From Candidatus Nomurabacteria bacterium GW2011_GWC2_42_20 (GTDB lineage Bacteria > Patescibacteriota > Minisyncoccia > Phycocordibacterales > UBA1550): a stretch of DNA of 58,242 nucleotides. How positions within the stretch are numbered: the first letter of the stretch is position 1; the number at the start of each line of letters is the position of its first letter. The stretch spans positions 1-58,242 of the forward strand of contig LCDG01000008.1 of the NCBI GenBank assembly GCA_000998425.1, in the 5' to 3' direction. Both the position numbers and the translations under genes were made by a program. Positions 1,755-33,040 of this stretch are shown piece by piece. The notes beneath the pieces are model-generated. The model was not told the DNA's origin. It made no database searches and saw only the letters and a list, made by a program, of their open reading frames with translations.

Positions 1755-3431
1755 ATGTTACGGAATTTAAAACTTGGAATTTTATTTGGGGTCGCGATAT
1801 TTTTTGCAAATACTGCGGAAGCGGCTTCTCTCTTTTTTGTGCCAGCGACCGGAGAGTTTGGCGTTGGAAGCAAGATCACTGTCGACCTTAAAATCGACAG
1901 TGAAGGTGTCGGAATAAATGCTGCCCAAGCTACAATCCGCTTTCCAAAAGATACACTCACCGTAACATCTGTAGACAAGACGGATTCAACTTTCAACTTT
2001 TGGCTAGAAGAACCTTCGTTTTCTAATGATGATGGAGTAATTACTTTTGTCGGTGGTACCCCATACGGCATATCAGGTGCTTCGATTCAGGTCTTGCGCG
2101 TAGTGTTCACGTCAAAAGGAAGTGGTCCTGCATCTATTACAATAGCCGATGCTGCCATTACCGCATCTGATGGAAGTGGAACAAATGTGTTATCAAAAAC
2201 AACCGACGCCACCTTCACTATTTCACCAACCGCAGTTTCTACTGTAATCCCTGCGCCAACCCAAATCAAACGTGAAGTAGTCCCTGCAAGTGGCCTACCA
2301 ACAAAACCAATAGTGACTGTCCCACTATACCCAAGTGTGTCTGGATGGCACAATGTTTCAAATCTCTTCAGCGCAAGCTGGGAGCTTCCTCGAGATATTT
2401 CTGGGGTTAGAACATCACTAAATAAACAACCTAGCTTCGTACCATCGGAAGAATCCGAAGGGTTATTTGAGAATAAAACCTTTAACGCATTATCAGACGG
2501 TATATGGTATCTACATGTCCGTTTTGCAAACAATGTTGGATGGGGTCCAACAACTCATTATCGTATTGCCATTGACACACAAGCTCCACTCCCCTTCGAG
2601 ATCACATCAGACACAAGCGAGGCAAGCGACAACCCCACACCCATCCTTAACTTTAAAGCAAGCGACGCTCTATCTGGATTAAACGAATATCGCATAAAAA
2701 TTGACAATGAAAATTGGATTGTTGTCACCAGCGAGGACTTCACAGGGTCATACAAGCTTCCTGTACAAAACCCTGGTAAGCACCATTTGATTATTCGCGC
2801 TGTAGACCACGCAGGTAACAGTATTGAAAATACTATTGATTATGAGACACTATCAATAACATTGCCTACATTCACATTTGTTACAAATACACTTTATTCA
2901 GATGAACCAAAGGGGCTTACTGTAAGAGGTACTGGTATCGCATTAGCAGAAGTTGTTGCGACACTCAAAAAGGATGGTGCAACCATAACAAGTAAGATAG
3001 TCGCTGTAGACACGCAAGGCAACTGGGAAGCAACCTTCAACGATGCTCTGCGTAATGGAACATATATTGTGAGTATTCAATCAAAAGATGCGCGTGGAGC
3101 TCTCAGCACTCCTGTAATTTCTGAAAATATTCAAGTTACTGGGAAATACACTGGCTTAATAATTCTGTCATTTATTATCCTTGTTGGGTCTCTTGCATCG
3201 GGATTCTTTTATCATAAAAAGCGTCGTGACCGTACTTCACTTCGTCTTGCTGTTGCTGAAAGCGATGTTGCAAAGGTATTTAAAATGATCGAGGCCGATG
3301 TTGAAAAACTTAAAAAGGCTGACACAACTCCAACACTCGCAGATGATGAATTTATCGCTCAAAAACTCGGTGAGAACGTGAAAAAGATGAGTGGGTATAT
3401 CAAGGAAACAATAAAACGTGCTAAAGAATAG
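1755..3431 (+). CDS. Membrane-anchored cohesin-domain protein (signal peptide, cohesin, Ig-like modules, C-terminal TM helix and cytoplasmic tail)
   Basis: Signal peptide MLRNLKLGILFGVAIFFANTAEA. The cohesin-like segment is 'SLFFVPATGEFGVGSKITVDLKIDSEGVGINAAQATIRFPKDTLTV...IQVLRVVFTSKGSGPASITIADAAI' (about nt 1827-2220). TM helix LIILSFIILVGSLASGFFY is followed by KKRRDR (about nt 3154-3235). The ATG lies 1 nt after the stop of the dockerin gene. Confidence 0.8.
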   Translation: MLRNLKLGILFGVAIFFANTAEAASLFFVPATGEFGVGSKITVDLKIDSEGVGINAAQATIRFPKDTLTVTSVDKTDSTFNFWLEEPSFSNDDGVITFVGGTPYGISGASIQVLRVVFTSKGSGPASITIADAAITASDGSGTNVLSKTTDATFTISPTAVSTVIPAPTQIKREVVPASGLPTKPIVTVPLYPSVSGWHNVSNLFSASWELPRDISGVRTSLNKQPSFVPSEESEGLFENKTFNALSDGIWYLHVRFANNVGWGPTTHYRIAIDTQAPLPFEITSDTSEASDNPTPILNFKASDALSGLNEYRIKIDNENWIVVTSEDFTGSYKLPVQNPGKHHLIIRAVDHAGNSIENTIDYETLSITLPTFTFVTNTLYSDEPKGLTVRGTGIALAEVVATLKKDGATITSKIVAVDTQGNWEATFNDALRNGTYIVSIQSKDARGALSTPVISENIQVTGKYTGLIILSFIILVGSLASGFFYHKKRRDRTSLRLAVAESDVAKVFKMIEADVEKLKKADTTPTLADDEFIAQKLGENVKKMSGYIKETIKRAKE

Positions 3432-3497: not shown

Positions 3498-3527
3498 TAG
3501 ATATTTCAATATTCAAATTTCCATTTT

Positions 3528-3941
3528 CTATATTCGCTTCTCTTTGCACGGCACACAACGACAATGTGGCTTTTTGATATACTCATCAAAATACTCCTTG
3601 CCGTAATCATAGTTTAGCTCTTCTCCAGCTTCGATACGTTTTATAGACTTCACGAACACGCGACCACCAACAATCTCAACCTCGCAATTTGGCTTACATG
3701 AGTGATTAATATATCGCGCTGTGTTTGAACGCGCGCTACCATCGATGAGCCTCGTCTTGCTTGTCTCGAATAAATATTTATTTTCTGGGTAATTTTCTAC
3801 TTCTTTTTTCCCATTCACCACCTTCCCAACGTATTCTATGATCCATGTGCCACGCTTAATAGGATCCTCTGCAAAAAGCCCGAGCCCAGCGCTCGACTTC
3901 TTAACCTTGTATTTCACATTTCCTATTTTTGGAATCGGCAT
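3528..3941 (-). CDS. SET-domain protein-lysine N-methyltransferase
   Basis: GLGLFA...WIIEYVG, the NHSCKPNCE (NHSC) motif, the EELNYDY (ELxYDY) motif and a post-SET-like Cys cluster CRCVPCK. Confidence 0.8.
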   Translation of the reverse strand: MPIPKIGNVKYKVKKSSAGLGLFAEDPIKRGTWIIEYVGKVVNGKKEVENYPENKYLFETSKTRLIDGSARSNTARYINHSCKPNCEVEIVGGRVFVKSIKRIEAGEELNYDYGKEYFDEYIKKPHCRCVPCKEKRI

Positions 3942-16635: not shown

Positions 16636-16699
16636 ATAGAGCTTTGGTAAATGCTAAGTAGCTACTGTAACATTACAATACTACGTATTAAAATCTATA

Positions 16700-16737
16700 A
16701 TTCCCAAATATGGTACTATCGTACCATATTTGGGAAT
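16700..16737. promoter_or_regulatory. 38-bp palindrome, copy 1 (attcccaaatatggtac-tatc-gtaccatatttgggaat)
   Basis: 17-bp perfect inverted arms at 16700-16716 and 16721-16737. It is nearly identical to the copy at 17350-17389. It lies 3' of the PaaX-like gene, between that gene and the convergent ABC permease gene. Confidence 0.7.
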
Positions 16738-16790
16738 ACCAACTAGGTCTGGCGATATTCTATAATTCTCCATATTGCGAATATTAATAT

Positions 16791-17345
16791 TTAAATATTA
16801 AAATGTTTCCTGATACAATTAACACCCTCAACATCATTTGCGGTAATGATCCGAATATGTTTTCGCACACCATAACACTCTCCGGCAAAATCAATCTCTT
16901 TTGAGCACGAGTACGGCGTGATAAATACAGATTTTTGATATTGGAGGCATCCAAGTTTCTGAATAGCATGCCCGATAGAGCGCCGTGCAAGTTTCTTGTC
17001 TTCAGGAATATCAAACATGACTATTCTCCATAAACCGTCCCATTTTGGTGGACGCTCAATTGTCATTGACTTTAGTTTGTACCGCATCGCTCGCTCCCTG
17101 CCAGTTGATGTAAGTGTGTAATATTCCTCTCCTTGCACTCTCTTTCTTCTTACAAAGCCACGTTTTTCGAGACTAGAAACAGACCTTCTCATATGCCATT
17201 GTTCCTTTGGTGTCCTTTTCCCGAAGTACTTGAAAAGCTGCACTGCATTAGGCATAGTGACAGCAACCGCGAGCACGCCAACTGTTAATAGTGTCGAGAA
17301 TACGATTTCCAGAACATCATCCTTTGTTGTATTTTTCATAGCCAT
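16791..17345 (-). CDS. PaaX-like regulator (N-terminal hydrophobic segment, winged-HTH, Cas2-fold middle domain)
   Basis: wHTH-like SVSSLEKRGFVRRKRVQGEEYYTLTSTG, followed by WDGLWRIVMFDIPEDKKLARRSIGHAIQKLGCLQYQKSVFITPY. This matches the W-G-W-xV-FDIPE...R...L...G...Q-SV pattern of PaaX-family / Cas2-fold proteins. Confidence 0.6.
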   Translation of the reverse strand: MAMKNTTKDDVLEIVFSTLLTVGVLAVAVTMPNAVQLFKYFGKRTPKEQWHMRRSVSSLEKRGFVRRKRVQGEEYYTLTSTGRERAMRYKLKSMTIERPPKWDGLWRIVMFDIPEDKKLARRSIGHAIQKLGCLQYQKSVFITPYSCSKEIDFAGECYGVRKHIRIITANDVEGVNCIRKHFNI

Positions 17346-17349
17346 GGTT

Positions 17350-17389
17350 AATTCCCAAATATGGTACTATAGTACCATATTTGGGAATT
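17350..17389. promoter_or_regulatory. 40-bp perfect palindrome, copy 2 (aattcccaaatatggtactatagtaccatatttgggaatt), candidate operator
   Basis: The sequence equals its own reverse complement over 40 bp. It ends 4 nt upstream of the ATG (17345) of the PaaX-like gene. Its centre, tggtactatagtacca, contains extended -10-like TGGTACTAT on both strands. Confidence 0.7.
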
Positions 17390-17561
17390 TAATGTAGTAA
17401 TAATATTTTGAATTGATGATGTAGAGAATTGTGGAATAAAACCAAAAAAGAATGTGCGAAATATTGGCCAAATCTCCATTAGCCATAACGTTCGTTGGAA
17501 CAATTTAGAGAGAATATTGTAATGTGGAGCCAAACGGCAATAAACATATTGCGTATACAAC

Positions 17562-18015: not shown

Positions 18016-18621
18016 TTATCTTAATGTAATCGTTGTGCGAAAAGCGTTCTCGTATACCCAATCTGTACTATTCGAGCTGTACCGAAAAGTCATCGCAACT
18101 TGTATAGCAGTCGTGGTCGCGTTTAAAATAGGGTTATAATTCTCAATTCGTGTAAAGGTTGGCGTATCGACCGTAACAGCACCCCCTGTAACAAGTTCTG
18201 GTTCACTCACATCAACCTTGCGACGAAGTGCGCCAGAAGACACATCATATAGGATTGTAGAACCAGCCACGGTGAGACTAAGTGTATTTGATGGTGTTCC
18301 AAAGATGGGGGTAGAGACCAGCGAAGCATTTTTTATATCTTGCTTTATGCGTTCCGAAGCAAAGCGCACCGCGCTATTTACCTCACTCCGCGCTTCAGAC
18401 TGTCCACGACCTTTTGACAGAGAAATAAAAGCATCTGAAACCACAACCATCAATCCAGAAAGTATTGCAACATATATCAAAAGCTCAAGGAGAGTGACGC
18501 CACGGGAGCGCGAAGCGCTACCACTGACCACTGACCACTGACCTTTAACAGCGGATTTTCGCATAGCGAAAATCCGCTGGTTGTTTGTGGGTTGCAAATT
18601 GTAAATTGTAAGTTGTTTCAT
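18016..18621 (-). CDS. Prepilin-type N-terminal cleavage/methylation-domain protein (pseudopilin)
   Basis: SRSRG|VTLLELLIYVAILSGLMVVV is a class III signal peptide. The start is ambiguous: M1 at 18621 or M20 at 18564. Confidence 0.75.
   Translation of the reverse strand: MKQLTIYNLQPTNNQRIFAMRKSAVKGQWSVVSGSASRSRGVTLLELLIYVAILSGLMVVVSDAFISLSKGRGQSEARSEVNSAVRFASERIKQDIKNASLVSTPIFGTPSNTLSLTVAGSTILYDVSSGALRRKVDVSEPELVTGGAVTVDTPTFTRIENYNPILNATTTAIQVAMTFRYSSNSTDWVYENAFRTTITLR
18521..18615. repeat. Heptamer-repeat leader element: (ccactga)x3, perfect 14-bp hairpin, (nnnnttg)x5
   Basis: ccactga x3 sits at 18521-18541. The hairpin cagcggattttcgc-ata-gcgaaaatccgctg sits at 18549-18579. Period-7 units ttgtttg/tgggttg/caaattg/taaattg/taagttg sit at 18581-18615. 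Confidence 0.8.
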
Positions 18622-26049: not shown

Positions 26050-26580
26050 TCAATATACTGTTCCTATATTCGAAATAGTGAGTGTTTGTGTTGAGCCCTC
26101 AGAATCAATAACGATGGTCGCTGGTGTTGTTGCGCCACTAATTTTTAAAAAAATAATATCCTTGCTTGTCCCTGCAGATGGGTCAGAAAAAGTTATTCCT
26201 GCTGGTAGCGTTGATGTAGAGATTGTTGTACCAGCAGCATAGTCTGTAGCTGTTGAAAAAAGCTCATAATACTGACTTCCACCATTTTCATTTACAATAT
26301 GCGCGCCCCATTTTAACCCATCCTCGCCTATCATTGATTTTGACCGCACATACCGGAGATCGCTCGCAATAGCCTTTGAAGCCGACTGAAGCTCAACATT
26401 CTTAACAAACCCACGATAAAATCCTGCTCCAGCAGAACCCAAAAGAGCAATAATAGAAATAACTATAAGAAGCTCGAGAAGGGAGAACCCGCGGGTACGC
26501 GGAGAATATTGAATATTGAATATTGAATGATGCAAACCAGATTCGTTCAACATTTTTTGTTTTTCTTTTTTTTCTTTCAT
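26050..26580 (-). CDS. Prepilin-type N-terminal domain protein, GspH/FimT-like pseudopilin
   Basis: RTRG|FSLLELLIVISIIALLGSAG, then ...SASKAIASDLRYVRSKS (GspH/FimT-like). The long leader is partly encoded by the heptamer tract. Confidence 0.8.
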   Translation of the reverse strand: MKEKKEKQKMLNESGLHHSIFNIQYSPRTRGFSLLELLIVISIIALLGSAGAGFYRGFVKNVELQSASKAIASDLRYVRSKSMIGEDGLKWGAHIVNENGGSQYYELFSTATDYAAGTTISTSTLPAGITFSDPSAGTSKDIIFLKISGATTPATIVIDSEGSTQTLTISNIGTVY

Positions 26581-26615
26581 ATTCTGTATTCCTTATTCAG
26601 TGTTCTATATTCTAC
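26504..26615. repeat. Inverted heptamer-array element A: (gaatatt)x3(+gaatg) ... (attcnnn)x5
   Basis: gaatatt x3 is perfect at 26504-26524. The units attctgt/attcctt/attcagt/gttctat/attctac lie at 26581-26615. The arms are complementary in kind (GAAT vs ATTC) and flank the start codon region of the pseudopilin gene. Confidence 0.8.
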
Positions 26616-26622
26616 CCAAATT

Positions 26623-27840
26623 CTATGTAAAATGCCCGACAAGCTGATAAATAGGGAGAATGATAGAAAATGCAATAGCCCCAACAAGTAGACCCATAAG
26701 CAATAGGAGGGCTGGTTCTAGAACAGCTGTCAAGTCTTTTAGCTTATTATCAACATCCTCTTCGTAAAAATCAGAAAATGTGACAAGGATTTCAGACAAA
26801 GAACCAGTCCGCTCGCCAACTGTGGTAAGGCTCACAAGGAGTCGCGGGAACAGTTCTGGAAACTTTGACAGGGCATCTGAAATGGAAATACCGTTTTTAA
26901 CATGGTCGACCACCGTGTTGATTGCCACCTCGTATTTTTGGTTCCCGATAGAATTTGCCGATGATTCAAGAGATGACACGGCAGAAAGACCACTCGACAT
27001 AAGGTTGCCGAGGGTACGCGTAAAACGCACGAGAGCTACTTTTTTTACAAGCTCACTTGCCACGGGAATATGTGAAATAACCCAAAAGAAAAATTTCTTT
27101 CCTGTGCGCGTAGTGCGAAAATAAAGAAAAAACCATATTAGAAAGACCAGCACTGCGCCATCCAAAAGAAAACTGTATGTAAGCATACTCGAGAGCCAAA
27201 GGAAGAACTTTGTAACCCACGGAAGCTCTACACCACTTGAAGCAAACGCCTTAGTAAGACGCGGAAGTACAAAAATAAGAAGTAACGAAACCACGCCAAC
27301 AGATGCAGATAAAAGAATTACTGGGTACATCAATGCAGACTTTACCTTTGCGCGAAGCGCGAACTCCTTTGAAAGATACTGGCCAAGCTCTGCAAGCGTA
27401 TGTGAGAGCTGACCAGAAGTCTCCCCTGCTCGCAACATCCCTAGGAAAACTGGAGGAAAATCATTTTTGTAATTCTCAAAACCAGCAGATAATGGTTGGC
27501 CATTTTTCACGAGTGCTTGCACTTCGATGAGCGTATCCTTCATTATCTTTTTTTCAGTATCCGCTATCAAAATATCTAAGGCTTCGACGATAGAAAGTCC
27601 GGCCTTCACCGTAGCAGAAAGATTGCGTACCAAAAACAAAATGTCGACCGATGTTATTTTTTCAAAAAGAGAGATAGACATGCCTAGTCCTCCTTTTCCG
27701 CTACGCAAAGAGCTTATCGAAACCGGCGTTAGGTCTCTGCGAAGCATATAATCAGCAACACCATCACGTGTGTCCGCTTCGTATTCCCCTTTTACAATTG
27801 CTCCGTCGCGATTGTAACCTTCGTAAATAAAAATTGGCAT
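26623..27840 (-). CDS. pilC: Type IV pilus / T2SS platform protein, GspF/PilC family
   Basis: 405 aa with two T2SSF repeats and three TM segments. Typical C-terminal LEPALLLLMGLLVGAIAFSIILPIYQL. Confidence 0.9.
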   Translation of the reverse strand: MPIFIYEGYNRDGAIVKGEYEADTRDGVADYMLRRDLTPVSISSLRSGKGGLGMSISLFEKITSVDILFLVRNLSATVKAGLSIVEALDILIADTEKKIMKDTLIEVQALVKNGQPLSAGFENYKNDFPPVFLGMLRAGETSGQLSHTLAELGQYLSKEFALRAKVKSALMYPVILLSASVGVVSLLLIFVLPRLTKAFASSGVELPWVTKFFLWLSSMLTYSFLLDGAVLVFLIWFFLYFRTTRTGKKFFFWVISHIPVASELVKKVALVRFTRTLGNLMSSGLSAVSSLESSANSIGNQKYEVAINTVVDHVKNGISISDALSKFPELFPRLLVSLTTVGERTGSLSEILVTFSDFYEEDVDNKLKDLTAVLEPALLLLMGLLVGAIAFSIILPIYQLVGHFT

Positions 27841-27850
27841 AACTTTGAGT

Positions 27851-28308
27851 TGAATATTGAATATAGAATGTTGAATTTAGAATAGACTCAAGATTCTACC
27901 TTATATTATAAATTGTTTGTCTTATTAATGAAAGCGTTTAGGAGTTGATGAGAATTTCCTAATTGATTATATATGCCATCAAACTCATCAGCTGGAAGAA
28001 ATGCAACATCTCGAGCTACCAAAAGCTGACTTTCTAGCTCTACAAGGGACCCTCTTGCAACTGAATAAAACTGTAATTTTTCCTTATTACCTCTCCGAGC
28101 AAATCCTTCTGCAATATTTGATGTTATTGAAACCGCAGATCTTCTCATTTGTGACGTTAACCCAAAAATTTCTTCTCGTGGAAATTTTCTTGTTATCTGA
28201 TAAATCATCAAAACAAGTTTATGCGCCTCTTGCCAAACAATAAGATCTGTAAATGCATAGATTTTGGGATTCCTATTCTGCATTTTTATTCGATATTCGA
28301 TATTCTAT
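27851..28308. repeat. Inverted heptamer-array element B, carrying the four-helix-bundle gene
   Basis: The (ngaatnn)x5 units tgaatat/tgaatat/agaatgt/tgaattt/agaatag lie at 27851-27885. The units attcgat/attcgat/attctat lie at 28288-28308. The two arrays are in inverted orientation and bracket CDS 27906-28283. Confidence 0.8.
27906..28283 (-). CDS. Four-helix-bundle protein (23S rRNA intervening-sequence protein / Avd-like family)
   Basis: The 125-aa protein reads LIVWQEAHKLVLMIYQITRKFPREEIFGLTSQMRRSAVSITSNIAEGFAR...FYSVARGSLVELESQLLVA. These are the hallmark motifs of the TIGR02436-type four-helix-bundle family. Confidence 0.85.
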   Translation of the reverse strand: MQNRNPKIYAFTDLIVWQEAHKLVLMIYQITRKFPREEIFGLTSQMRRSAVSITSNIAEGFARRGNKEKLQFYSVARGSLVELESQLLVARDVAFLPADEFDGIYNQLGNSHQLLNAFINKTNNL

Positions 28309-28313
28309 CAAGT

Positions 28314-30029
28314 TTACTCCTTCACCACCCTGAGAATCTCCTCAATAGTAGTAATCCCACGCTCGACTTTATCCAACCCATCCTCAAACATTGTTTTCAT
28401 ACCATCCTCAATAGCCTTTTTTCGCACCTCGCCAACCGTCGCTTCACGCAAGATAAGCTCTCGGACAGAATCATTTATGCGAAAAAGCTCATAGATTCCA
28501 ATCTGCCCCTGAAAACCCGAATTCCCGCACACCTTGCATCCACGCCCACGGTAAAGAGTTGTGGGTATATCTCCTGTCGTGTTGCCAGAGAGCTCCATTT
28601 GCGCCTTAATAAGGCGTATAATCTCTGGGCTTGCTACGTATGACTCTGGGCACGAGGCGCAGATACGACGAACAAGACGCTGAGCGATAACAAGGTTTAT
28701 TGTTGATGAGAGAAGGAACGCTGGCGCACCCATATCTAGAAGGCGTGGCAAAGCAGATGTTGCATCGTTGGTGTGTAGTGATGACACAACAAGATGCCCC
28801 GTAAGAGCAGCGTGAATTGCAATTTCGACTGTCTCGTTGTCACGAATCTCACCAATCATAATAATGTCTGGGTTTTGGCGAAGTAGAGCACGAAGACCGT
28901 TTGCAAAAGTAATCCCAGCTTTTGGATTTACTTGTGTCTGGTTTACACGTGGGAATTCGTACTCAACAGGATCTTCAATGGTTGTAATGTTGACTGATGG
29001 CGTATTAAGAATTTGAAGTATCGCATATAGCGTTGTTGTCTTGCCGTGTCCAGTAGGACCAGTCACAAGCACCATGCCGTGAGGTTTTTTAATTTCATTA
29101 AAAAGAATATCGGTAGCAGCGTCAGAGAACCCAAGATCTTTTAGTGTGAGGGGCCGAGCAGCGCCCTTAAGAATACGCATTTCAACTTTTTCACCATGAA
29201 AGACTGGCATAATGTTTACACGTACATCTATAGACATACCGTCGTCCATATCAAAACGAAAACGACCGTCTTGTGGCATACGATGTTCGTCTATTTGCAT
29301 ACCTGCGAGGATCTTTACACGCGCCACAAGCACAGGAGCAATAGCTTTTGGCAAACTTACAATCTCCTGCATGATGCCATCAATACGAAAGCGTATAAGT
29401 AATTCCTTTTCGAGTGGTTCAAAATGAATGTCTGAAGTATTTAGGCTTGCTGCATGATCAATGACATTATCGAGAATACTCACAATAGGAACAGCTGCGG
29501 CTCCCTTTGTAACATCCGCCTCGTCCGCGACTGACATGGACTGCTCAACATTTTCAGAAATAATTTGATCAAAATTAATACCAACTTTTTTCTTGTACTG
29601 CTTGAGCCCATAACGAAGGCTTGGTAGCGTGGTCAAATACACATCAACCCATACGTTAAGCTTCGCGCGGACGTACTCGATAGTCTCGTAGTCAAAAGGG
29701 TCAAGCATCGCGAGTTTGGCTCGCCCTTGCTCCTTGTCGTATGCAAACAAAACTATATTTTTTGACTTTGCGTAAACCTCTGGGATAAGCTCGAGTATCT
29801 CATGGTCTATTGTCTCTGCTTCCTTTTTAAGGTTTACAATCGGCGCTGAATAGTATGGGCTTAAAAGCTCGGTAAAATAATCCTCGGGAATCTTGCCACT
29901 GCCAATGAGCACATTGGCTATAGACTGTCCTGAACGACGAGACTCCTCGGCCACAGCATCAAAATCTTCATCGGTAATAAGTCCAGACTCAAGCGCGATT
30001 TCTCTTAATTTATCTTTTGAGATGTGCAT
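28314..30029 (-). CDS. pilB: Type IV pilus assembly ATPase, GspE/PilB family
   Basis: T2SSE N-terminal domain, Walker A VTGPTGHGKTTT, Asp box, Walker B, His box and the tetracysteine CASC...CKVCGNSG. Confidence 0.92.
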   Translation of the reverse strand: MHISKDKLREIALESGLITDEDFDAVAEESRRSGQSIANVLIGSGKIPEDYFTELLSPYYSAPIVNLKKEAETIDHEILELIPEVYAKSKNIVLFAYDKEQGRAKLAMLDPFDYETIEYVRAKLNVWVDVYLTTLPSLRYGLKQYKKKVGINFDQIISENVEQSMSVADEADVTKGAAAVPIVSILDNVIDHAASLNTSDIHFEPLEKELLIRFRIDGIMQEIVSLPKAIAPVLVARVKILAGMQIDEHRMPQDGRFRFDMDDGMSIDVRVNIMPVFHGEKVEMRILKGAARPLTLKDLGFSDAATDILFNEIKKPHGMVLVTGPTGHGKTTTLYAILQILNTPSVNITTIEDPVEYEFPRVNQTQVNPKAGITFANGLRALLRQNPDIIMIGEIRDNETVEIAIHAALTGHLVVSSLHTNDATSALPRLLDMGAPAFLLSSTINLVIAQRLVRRICASCPESYVASPEIIRLIKAQMELSGNTTGDIPTTLYRGRGCKVCGNSGFQGQIGIYELFRINDSVRELILREATVGEVRKKAIEDGMKTMFEDGLDKVERGITTIEEILRVVKE

Positions 30030-30037
30030 ATTGAACT

Positions 30038-30114
30038 GAATGTGGAATATAGAATTTTGAATATTGAATAGGGAAACGAAATGTATCAGTATTATATAAT
30101 ATTCAATATTCTAT
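30038..30114. repeat. Inverted heptamer-array element C (no cargo)
   Basis: The units gaatgtg/gaatata/gaatttt/gaatatt/gaatagg/gaaacga lie at 30038-30079. The units attcaat/attctat lie at 30101-14. gaatattgaata and tattcaatattc are exact reverse complements. Confidence 0.8.
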
Positions 30115-30174
30115 CCAATCAGTATATCACACCTATTTTTAATAAGTACAACTTAGCTGTGGATACTGACGTCT

Positions 30175-30855: not shown

Positions 30856-30901
30856 AAAAAACACACAGCTTGTCTAGATACTAGACAAGCTGTGTGTTTT
30901 T
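30856..30901. terminator. Strong rho-independent terminator after the pilin genes
   Basis: aaaaacacacagcttgtctag-ata-ctagacaagctgtgtgttttt is a perfect ~21-bp stem that includes the A/T runs. It lies immediately 3' of pilin CDS 30911-31678 on the minus strand. Confidence 0.85.
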
Positions 30902-32500: not shown

Positions 32501-32527
32501 TAGTACTGTGGATAACTACACTGGGCA

Positions 32528-32666
32528 GAATATTGAATGTAGAATGTTGAAGATAGAATGAATGCAGGAAATTCGTTTGCTTCGCTAAGCGGCGGGCTTT
32601 TGCCGTATGCAAAAACACCGCACCATTCTATATTCTATATTCTATATTCGAAATTCTACATTCTAT
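32528..32666. repeat. Inverted heptamer-array element D (60-nt GC-richer core)
   Basis: gaat occurs in phase 7 at 32528/35/42/(49)/56. attc occurs in phase 7 at 32625/32/39/46/53/60, and attctat x3 is perfect at 32625-32645. The last unit overlaps the response-regulator stop codon. Confidence 0.85.
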
Positions 32667-33040
32667 CCAAGATAGCCCATTGCCTTGTTTATCACGTCTT
32701 GTATTGAATAGTCTACTTTTACCAAATATTCATTTGCCCCCAATGCAAGCGCGCGATCTTGATCTGTCTTTTGACCAAGGTTTGAAAGAATAATAACAGG
32801 TATATTTGCAAGCTCTGGATTTTTCTTTATCTCCTCAAGGACACCGAAACCATCTTTTTTAGGAATCATAAGGTCAAGTAAAATAACGTCTGGCTTCTCA
32901 GCGGTAATTTTTACAATCGCCTCCTCACCATCGCGCGCCAAGGATACATCAATCCCCTCTTTCGCGAATTTGATTTCATATACCTTTGAAATATGCTCGT
33001 CGTCCTCGACAACCATTATCTTTTTTTTGTTAGTATCCAT
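32663..33040 (-). CDS. Single-domain response regulator (CheY-like receiver only)
   Basis: VVEDDE, the phospho-acceptor context VILLDLMIPKKDG, IILSN and EYLVK. There is no output domain. Confidence 0.9.
   Translation of the reverse strand: MDTNKKKIMVVEDDEHISKVYEIKFAKEGIDVSLARDGEEAIVKITAEKPDVILLDLMIPKKDGFGVLEEIKKNPELANIPVIILSNLGQKTDQDRALALGANEYLVKVDYSIQDVINKAMGYLG

Follow-up and report, generated by a model that had tools for sequence, protein, structure and literature searches.

Why does a gene for a small four-helix-bundle (4HB) protein lie between pilB and pilC, and why is it bracketed by short tandem repeats? The question arises from a pilus gene cluster in a 58,242-nt stretch of DNA (the window, which is the whole stretch analyzed here). 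The DNA belongs to a Patescibacteria population of groundwater that is close to Candidatus Yonathbacteria. CPR operons, including those of type IV pilus genes central to the lifestyle, carry turnover-prone inserts of this kind, and annotation pipelines label them only "four helix bundle protein". To our knowledge, ORF-bearing intervening sequences (IVSs) of rRNA have been a curiosity since the early 1990s, with a protein of unknown function and an unexplained origin. Heptanucleotide repeats are also documented to be over-represented in bacterial genomes, for which no mechanism has been given. Here, the two puzzles are tied by one testable rule, namely that 4HB genes are wrapped in inverted heptamer arrays; the rule spans messenger operons and rRNA, from Patescibacteria to Xanthomonas. 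With a probability of roughly 0.7, the feature between pilB and pilC is a single copy of a cassette that is widespread and mobile in evolution, and that belongs to one type with the ORF-bearing 23S rRNA IVSs. Such a cassette would consist of a 4HB gene of about 125 aa, tightly bracketed by two inverted arrays of about four to five copies of an element-specific heptanucleotide.

The 4HB gene and its heptamer arms in the window

The order on the minus strand is pilB, a 125-aa ORF, and pilC. The host genes, the cassette, and the other heptamer-bearing elements of the window are as follows.

28314-30029, minus strand: pilB (T2SSE ATPase), upstream host gene (ORF call and Pfam T2SSE, E 5e-128)
28284-28313, minus strand: 5' arm (mRNA sense), three in-phase GAATATC/GAATAAA units at 28288-28305 plus outer ACTTGA
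27906-28283, minus strand: cargo gene, intact, encoding the 125-aa 4HB protein of the 23S rRNA IVS protein family (ORF and profiles)
27841-27905, minus strand: 3' arm region, five in-phase units (ATTC in mRNA sense) at 27852-27883 plus outer TCAAAGT
26623-27840, minus strand: pilC (T2SSF platform protein), downstream host gene (ORF call and Pfam T2SSF, E 1e-58)
26501-26614, no strand: element A, ORF-less inverted GAAT heptamer pair between pilC and the next pseudopilin gene
30035-30115, no strand: element C, ORF-less inverted pair directly before the pilB ATG
32527-32667, no strand: element D, ORF-less inverted pair between a response-regulator gene and the pilin promoter region
3503-3536, minus strand: lone, partnerless GAAT-type heptamer array at the 3' end of a SET-domain gene

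The first-pass annotation had placed a 4HB gene between pilB and pilC, and the ORFs and profile matches bear this out. The 125-aa product scored 126.3 bits against Pfam 23S_rRNA_IVP (PF05635; cut-off 33.8) and 119.4 bits against NCBIfam TIGR02436 (cut-off 24), and it belongs to both families. Its nearest solved structure is XCC0516 of Xanthomonas campestris (PDB 2GSC; E 3.5e-22, residues 2-120), which is cited in a passage of PMC4990558 as a homopentameric toroid of four-helix bundles. Comparison with the orthologue in the related locus L105 gave a pN of 0.14 and a pS of 0.60; with a dN/dS of about 0.13, the window 4HB is a functional protein under purifying selection. The pS of the 4HB gene against L105 is below the saturated pS values of pilB and pilC. 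No recognizable nuclease or recombinase domain was found in the 4HB protein. Viral contigs scanned with this single protein yielded no relative, so carriage by phage is unsupported. We know of no catalytic activity of 4HB proteins.

Avd, the accessory protein of diversity-generating retroelements (DGRs), is a pentameric, nucleic-acid-binding protein whose four-helix-bundle fold is distantly related. The window protein matched bAvd (24 bits) and DivGenRetAVD (27 bits) at sub-threshold scores, as might be expected if it were the Avd of a DGR. These scores are far below the cut-offs (PF22296, 24 vs. 40 bits; NF033474, 27.4 vs. 80), the genes called in the 10 kb to each side include no reverse-transcriptase domain, and no TR/VR-like repeat pair was found in the window. 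Membership in the DGR/Avd group was rejected on these three grounds and is extremely improbable.

The 5' arm starts 0-5 nt past the pilB stop codon and ends 4 nt short of the 4HB ATG. The 3' array starts 22 nt past the 4HB stop codon and ends 11 nt before the pilC ATG; with its outer TCAAAGT, the 3' arm region reaches to 3 nt before that ATG. The outer ACTTGA of the 5' arm can be paired to the distal end of the 3' arm. The cassette occupies, in sense orientation, the gap between two cistrons of a co-directional operon, with its edges at the upstream stop codon and the downstream start codon. The five and three in-phase units confirm the earlier claim that inverted heptamer arrays bracket the ORF. 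The accompanying claim that the period of 7 nt continues into the first codons does not hold strictly, as the GAAT motifs there are out of phase, with offsets of 13 and 6 nt. These first-codon motifs (ATG CAG AAT AGG AAT), though out of phase, lengthen the predicted arm duplex. The three-unit pattern GAATNNNGAATNNNGAAT, with one mismatch allowed, had 20 matches in the window against 0.72 expected, a count reached in 0 of 100 shuffles, and all matches fall in four loci of the pilus cluster (the 4HB pair and elements A, C, and D). The predicted arm-arm duplex of the cassette is interrupted, at -15.8 kcal/mol, or -23.7 kcal/mol when the first 4HB codons are included. Long-range pairing of the arms is present in the minimum-energy fold of the whole 473-nt cassette, and this fold is not better than those of shuffles (z -0.8).

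Judging from its sequence, the cassette very probably lacks a promoter of its own and is transcribed with pilB and pilC. A conserved motif, TATCCACAG...TGNTAYAMT, is located upstream of element C and is plausibly a promoter for the pilB-4HB-pilC unit. Several other readings of the arms were rejected. TTGAAT/TAGAAT units resemble promoter hexamers; a period of 7 permits hexamer spacings of 15 or 22 nt, and sigma-70 sites were fewer than in shuffles (9 vs. 15.3), with one weak match on the 5' arm. As terminators, the arms have no T-run, and the only strong terminator is at 30858-30900. As a known RNA family, they have no Rfam match, no Rfam family being matched anywhere within the window. No RNase III gene is located within the window. 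The element lies outside any rRNA gene, and its host is the pilB-pilC mRNA.

Elements A, C, and D are genuine inverted pairs, their loops measuring about 22-63 nt, and their hairpin folding z-scores are -2.1, -4.0, and -4.7, respectively. They had been described as empty or decayed cassettes; of the two terms, "empty" is established for these ORF-less pairs and "decayed" is not. The position of element C also holds an empty array pair in two relatives (L103 and L104), and element D is swapped wholesale for a different hairpin in strains with 99.5% identical flanks. The ORF-less pairs of the window match the arms of the local cassette far better than those of other cassettes (ranks 0.00-0.04). 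This close match is what would be expected if the 4HB protein were a resident regulator of the pil operon, with the GAAT arrays as its binding sites and the bracket as a sign of autoregulation and not the boundary of a mobile element. It might act as a TRAP-like ring protein on periodic RNA motifs or on a DNA operator array, with sites upstream of pilB, pilC, pseudopilin, and pilin genes. Consistent with such a regulator, the GAAT pairs of the 58-kb window, four in number, are all confined to 6 kb, where each immediately precedes a pilus gene, and the hairpin of element A has been kept at the equivalent place in L011, where the orthologous unit is GAACACN. A post-transcriptional network has also been suggested for TAACTGA heptamers (MacGregor 2015, PMC4679880).

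Turnover at the pilB-pilC junction and flanks of homologous genes

The pilB-pilC junction was compared among six related loci. Identities are relative to the window PilB and PilC.

L105: PilB 80%, PilC 72%; orthologous 4HB (72.8% identity), GAAT arms
L011: PilB 78% (C-terminal 167 aa), PilC 69%; L105-type orthologous 4HB, GAAT arms
L102: PilB 88%, PilC 83%; unrelated 4HB (30.6% identity), TTGACAN arms
L103: PilB 89%, PilC 81%; pilB and pilC adjacent, 13-nt gap
L104: PilB 87%, PilC 76%; pilB and pilC adjacent, 16-nt gap
L106: PilB 73%, PilC 65%; pilB and pilC adjacent, 25-nt gap

The leader TACCCAAYAAY before the pilC ATG is common to occupied and empty junctions; therefore, the insert sits directly after the pilB stop codon. 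Because three junctions are empty and L102 carries a non-orthologous cassette, the 4HB gene is an insert and the junction turns over. The comparison shows that cassettes have been gained, lost, and replaced at one junction, in agreement with the first-pass annotation, which had proposed a cassette-like, possibly mobile element of the IVS type and a look at relatives with adjacent pilB and pilC. The insertion in the window is old, as its orthologue in L011 and L105 is 73% identical, similar to its neighbours. The empty junction of L104 reads GAATAATATTC, a mini-palindrome with one unit per arm. Occupied and empty junctions are too diverged to give base-level boundaries, and a target-site duplication is undefinable. 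A second 4HB cassette lies between two pseudopilin genes in L011 and L105; the same two genes are 1 nt apart in the window.

This turnover argues against a resident regulator. The pilus clusters of L103, L104, and L106 lack a 4HB gene, while L103 and L104 still keep an array pair upstream of pilB, and L102 has an unrelated 4HB at the junction itself.

One genome per species was scanned for homologues, which gave 80 loci with proteins 50-73% identical, nearly all from Patescibacteria MAGs; these loci were picked by likeness to the window 4HB, and generality across the family rests on about ten further examples. Lag-7 identity at the start and stop of the 4HB gene was 0.47 and 0.46 against a background of 0.27 (75 loci). 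Lag-14 identity around the start and stop codons was 0.43 and 0.41, and every other lag, as well as control DNA of the same loci, gave 0.25-0.32. At 70 of the 74 loci, complementarity between the 5' and 3' flanks exceeded the 99th percentile obtained by shuffling; its median was 34.5 within a locus against 18 between loci (p 1e-29), and 15 after shuffling. The suspicion that 4HB genes of relatives are systematically flanked by arrays was thereby upheld. No rRNA motifs were found in the 80 homologous loci.

The heptamer units vary by cassette. About half are GAATNNN, and the others include GATTTAN, GTATTNN, AAGTATC, GATTCAA, and GC-richer ones; a single MAG can hold two cassettes of differing units (L034 and L054). 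Whatever the unit, the 3' array is the reverse complement of the 5' array in every cassette, and the modal arm length is four units. The median end of the 5' arm is at +3.5 relative to the A of the ATG, and the median start of the 3' arm is 5 nt before the end of the stop codon. Towards the neighbouring genes, the median outer edge is 1 nt past the stop codon upstream and 3 nt short of the start codon downstream. Both neighbours are in sense with the 4HB gene in 59 loci and both are antisense in 2. In 70 of 71 loci, the G-rich arm precedes the other. Taking this polarity as a strand-specific sign was rejected, because an inverted pair reads identically on both strands; the order reflects a conserved or inherited arrangement only and carries no information on RNA versus DNA.

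In 603 kb, 306 period-7 arrays were found, compared with 7 in shuffles. The arrays form 133 inverted pairs, 81 of which enclose a 4HB gene and 34 of which are ORF-less. The distance between arms is 1-145 nt in the ORF-less pairs and mostly 347-470 nt in those that enclose a 4HB gene. The sole true cargo between arms is the 4HB gene, including one divergent 4HB in L078; other candidate cargo ORFs were rejected as host genes sitting between separate elements. The heptamer class is shared with the nearest protein neighbour in 47 of 56 cases, against 42% expected. Because the class tracks 4HB phylogeny, arms and gene are inherited, and travel, together.

Under another reading, the pairs are MITE- or REPIN-like DNA elements that are non-autonomous and depend on a transposase acting in trans, such as one of the Y1 (IS200/RAYT) type, and the 4HB gene is a passenger. 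The abundance of ORF-less pairs (34 in 603 kb; 70-75 pairs in Xanthomonas) is consistent with this, as are the Y1_Tnp genes at site C of L104 and L105 and the exchange of element D between near-identical strains. However, the hairpins on either side of those Y1 genes are of a different, REP-like kind without heptamer arrays. Also against this reading, the only cargo ORF between arms is a 4HB, the divergent L078 copy included. No transposase was found in or beside the cassettes, nor were target duplications, in junctions too diverged for base-level boundaries. We regard this reading as very improbable.

Nature of the arms

Each unit consists of a conserved 4-nt core and three variable positions. 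Among arm mismatches in the sense transcript, G:U pairs were not in excess over A:C pairs (72 vs. 82), and the three variable positions lacked mirror-register complementarity (0.685 vs. 0.697 with the unit order shuffled). Selection for an RNA stem is therefore not visible. Unit similarity is 0.564 within an arm and 0.554 across arms, and in the GAAT class the 5' arm of a cassette is paired better by its own 3' arm than by the arms of other cassettes (rank 7 vs. 18 expected). Both arms draw on one element-specific pool of units, in about four to five copies. They resemble recognition-site arrays more than a tuned palindrome, which favours an oligomeric reader, possibly the pentameric 4HB.

These results bear on a reading of the cassette as a pure RNA device, in which the arms only form a stem for RNase III to cleave, by which the insert is excised or insulated, the protein is idle at the arms, and the heptamer periodicity is a by-product of replication slippage. 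Experimental precedent exists in Coxiella and other IVSs. The sense orientation and the arms abutting host stop and start codons fit such a device, and the repeat number varies among Coxiella strains, as expected of slippage. Nevertheless, the arm mismatches and register comparison do not behave like a selected stem, the 4-nt core is kept in every unit while three positions float, and the period of 7 nt holds in at least five phyla with differing unit sequences. Slippage alone explains neither the unit shared by both arms nor the constant period, and the direct-repeat flanks in Pseudanabaena are unable to form a stem. The probability of a pure RNA device is accordingly small in our estimate.

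Under the preferred reading of a mobile cassette, the arms in the pilB-pilC transcript could pair in any 7-nt register. Pairing would loop out the 4HB ORF and bring the pilB stop codon next to the pilC start codon again. The insert would be tolerated through this loop-out, and the arm duplex would be a candidate substrate of RNase III, like the rRNA versions. Taken jointly, we give these steps slightly less than an even chance. Counting against them are the modest, interrupted arm duplex of the window (-16 to -24 kcal/mol), the negative tests for RNA-stem selection, and the z-score of -0.8 for the whole 473-nt fold.

The heptamer may also be what an oligomeric protein recognizes; the most plausible candidate is the homopentameric 4HB, each subunit of which would read one unit. 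The 4HB would then act on its own flanks and on ORF-less pairs. This we propose tentatively, and two observations weigh against it. GAAT-type and GTAT-type 4HB proteins differ only in the C-terminal codons overlapping the arm; no residues in the protein body separate the two types of cassette, and sequence-specific recognition by the 4HB is therefore not supported. In the specificity-residue analysis, a monophyletic GATT clade alone separates. Moreover, taken overall, only about one locus in three has nearby ORF-less pairs with the unit of the local cassette (mean rank 0.41, p 0.05). The difference of units in most loci is also awkward for a resident regulator, even though a core plus variable spacer without register complementarity would suit binding sites.

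Two routes of movement are candidates, namely recombination within the arms, for which ORF-less pairs would act as landing pads, and loss or gain at the base of the hairpin. Both would fit the sequence of the empty site in L104.

Occurrence in other phyla and relation to known systems

Among plasmid matches, inverted heptamer arms flank the 4HB gene in Nostoc (GTCAGGA), Geminocystis (AAGGGAA), and Riemerella (AAGGTTY, inside the suf operon). The accB and accC genes are normally one operon, and in Xanthomonas the XCC0516 orthologue lies between them, with GGGAATC-type and ATTCCCN arms. The period of 7 nt is kept across at least five phyla despite the differing unit sequences. Some cyanobacterial genes (L092-L094) are exceptions and count against the preferred reading. 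In Pseudanabaena, the 4HB between cas6 and cas4 is flanked on either side by long direct arrays, and in Nostoc 7120 and Calothrix only one side of the 4HB gene bears an array. Overall, the bracketed gene occurs in accBC, suf, cas, mreB, and carB operons and in rRNA. So many unrelated hosts are not expected of a regulator resident in the pil operon, and we consider that reading improbable.

The rRNA example is Azospirillum lipoferum AZO_p2 (L098), in which the LSU rRNA gene (Rfam, 2529 bits) contains, about 1150 nt from the gene start, a 4HB ORF between inverted GAGGACG/GATGACA arms. We take this position to be the classical helix-45 IVS site, by E. coli numbering. In the Coxiella IVS, two to three tandem GACAGAT units plus a degenerate one precede the S23p start codon, the repeat number differs among strains, and the 5' cut of RNase III is at the first heptamer repeat (PMC4990558). 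The IVS-like logic that the first-pass annotation had seen in the window thus proved to be literal.

ORF-bearing 23S rRNA IVSs (Coxiella burnetii S23p, Leptospira, and Azospirillum L098) and the window cassette both encode a PF05635 protein, are of equal size (about 430-470 nt), and carry the ORF within terminal inverted repeats, which in the window are the stem-capable arms at 28284-28313 and 27841-27905. In both, the terminal repeats are tandem heptamers (GACAGAT in Coxiella; GAGGACG/GATGACA in Azospirillum), and the insert is in sense in the host transcript. At the level of sequence, the window element has every feature of an ORF-bearing IVS except the host RNA, which is a polycistronic pilus mRNA instead of an rRNA. 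In addition, the window insert lies between a stop and a start codon, whereas the classical IVS lies in a helix loop. The stem in the window is weaker and interrupted, whereas that of the Coxiella IVS is a nearly perfect 28 bp. Cleavage by RNase III has been reported for the Coxiella IVS, whereas for the window cassette it is a prediction.

The 4HB protein family, the rRNA IVSs, and the heptamer repeats were already known separately. As far as we found, the cassette in messenger operons, the cross-phylum rule of inverted heptamer arms, the turnover at one junction, and the link to dispersed heptamer repeats are new. A literature search of partial coverage returned no paper stating a general 4HB-array rule or a link to bacterial heptamer repeats.

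In REPIN-RAYT systems, a gene is flanked by inverted short repeats that are also dispersed as intergenic hairpin doublets, and repeat and gene co-evolve. These systems were reportedly described by Nunvar in 2010 and by Bertels and Rainey in 2011. The layout in the window is alike, with a gene between inverted repeats and dispersed hairpin doublets. The difference is that REPIN-RAYT systems enclose a Y1 transposase and use single REP palindromes, whereas the window element encloses a 4HB gene and uses tandem heptamer arrays.

Intergenic heptanucleotide repeats have been described in several groups. X. campestris has 186 GGGAATC arrays of unknown function, most with four units and with 70-75 convergent pairs, and GGGGAYT is an over-represented intergenic heptanucleotide repeat in Nostoc (Rehm 2015, PMC4692102). 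TAACTGA arrays occur in Beggiatoaceae, cyanobacteria, and Bacteroidetes (MacGregor 2015, PMC4679880). In both studies the repeats are considered by themselves, as G-quadruplexes or translational signals, with no mention of a 4HB gene, whereas the array pair of the window encloses a gene. Pentameric 4HB proteins might be the missing partner of dispersed heptanucleotide arrays (GGGAATC, cyanobacterial STRR, TAACTGA, and those of CPR), a proposal that we consider rather doubtful. Under it, each 4HB gene would lie within its cognate arrays, and the ring would read one heptamer per subunit, on RNA or DNA. Scattered ORF-less pairs would be dependants in a two-component system of gene plus repeat with a non-enzymatic ring protein, and the classical rRNA IVSs would be copies that landed in rRNA. 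The published repeats (Xanthomonas, Nostoc, TAACTGA, and cyanobacterial STRR) and the arrays of the window are alike in having tandem 7-nt units with a modal count of about four, in being intergenic in co-directional operons, and often in forming convergent, hairpin-capable pairs; the window arrays are intergenic, convergent pairs of at least three to four units. The Xanthomonas unit GGGAATC contains the GAAT core of the window and is also the arm unit around the Xanthomonas 4HB gene.

Promoter-like boxes and a terminator-like hairpin in the pilus cluster

A conserved box, TATCCACAG, was found in the window at 30158-30170 and 32506-32516, and also in the pilus clusters of three relatives (L103, L104, and L105) at site C, the spot just upstream of the pilB ATG. 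The box variant near element D, TTATCCACA, is DnaA-box-like. At 25-30 nt past the box lies TGNTAYAMT (TGTGATATACT, TGGTACAAT, and GTGGTATACT); both in the window and in relatives, this arrangement is placed upstream of pilB as well as the pilin gene. TGNTAYAMT with the conserved box is probably an extended -10 promoter plus a conserved upstream site. If so, element C, an inverted array pair lacking an ORF, would lie at the extreme 5' end of the pilB transcript, and element D, another such pair, would be upstream of the pilin promoter. A terminator-like site on the minus strand (30857-30901) consists of a perfectly paired 21-bp hairpin and, after it, a T-run. Lying directly past the second pilin gene, it sets the pilin genes apart from what follows downstream: a 220-aa gene, pilB, the four-helix-bundle (4HB) gene, and pilC.

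Hairpin elements at site C and turnover of element D

Site C is an intergenic spot where at least two kinds of hairpin element accumulate. In relatives, a Y1_Tnp (IS200/RAYT-like) gene occupies the site (L104, 3289-4269; L105, 2745-3752) and carries its own REP-like flanking hairpins, CCAGGAATTGCCTGG in L104 and TTGAAGCCNGGCTTCAA in L105. A solo hairpin in L102 (3718-3803) is a copy of the L105-type TTGAAGCCNGGCTTCAA. Element D (window 32527-32667) is swapped wholesale for a shorter, unrelated hairpin in the near-identical strains L005, L009, and L010, with flanking DNA 99.5% identical to that of the window. The replacing hairpin has the core GATGTGGCGACGC-GAA-GCGTCGCCACATC and different flanking repeats.

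Array arms and pseudopilin leader peptides

In several array pairs, the 3' arm falls within the sole available ORF upstream of a G|F(S/T)LLEL prepilin cleavage motif:

Window, 26500-26580: 3' arm within that ORF
L011 (relative's pilus cluster), 2222-2330 and 3162-3290: the same arrangement
L015 and L018: the same arrangement, downstream of the 4HB gene

On one reading, the heptamer array itself would encode the long pseudopilin leader peptides, for example ...HHSIFNIQYSPRTRG|FSLLELL; alternatively, the true start codons would be non-canonical.

Atypical arrays and a differently bracketed gene

At window 3503-3536, five GAAT-type units form an array that stands alone, with no inverted counterpart. 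It runs across the stop codon of a gene for a SET-domain protein (3528-3941, minus strand) and adjoins a convergent terminator hairpin. A separate short period-7 array, CCACTGA x3 (18519-18549), has no relation to the GAAT family. In the cassette at locus L014 (3404-4513), nested blocks of arrays surround a single 4HB gene and make up arms of unusual length (11+3 and 5+5+6 GAAT/ATTC units). In the Pseudanabaena galeata plasmid pPg_01 (L092), a 4HB gene is inserted between cas6 and cas4, flanked by long heptamer arrays, (CTAAAAG) ~15x upstream and (CCAAAAG) ~10x downstream; these are direct, not inverted, so a stem is impossible there.

An ORF of 184 aa (window 16791-17345, minus strand), which has a PaaX central Cas2-like domain at E 6e-17, is another type of bracketed gene than the heptamer cassette. 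On either side of it stands one copy of a sequence of 40-52 nt that is perfectly palindromic in itself (TAATTCCCAAATATGGTACTA|TAGTACCATATTTGGGAATT), and the whole unit spans 16686-17402.
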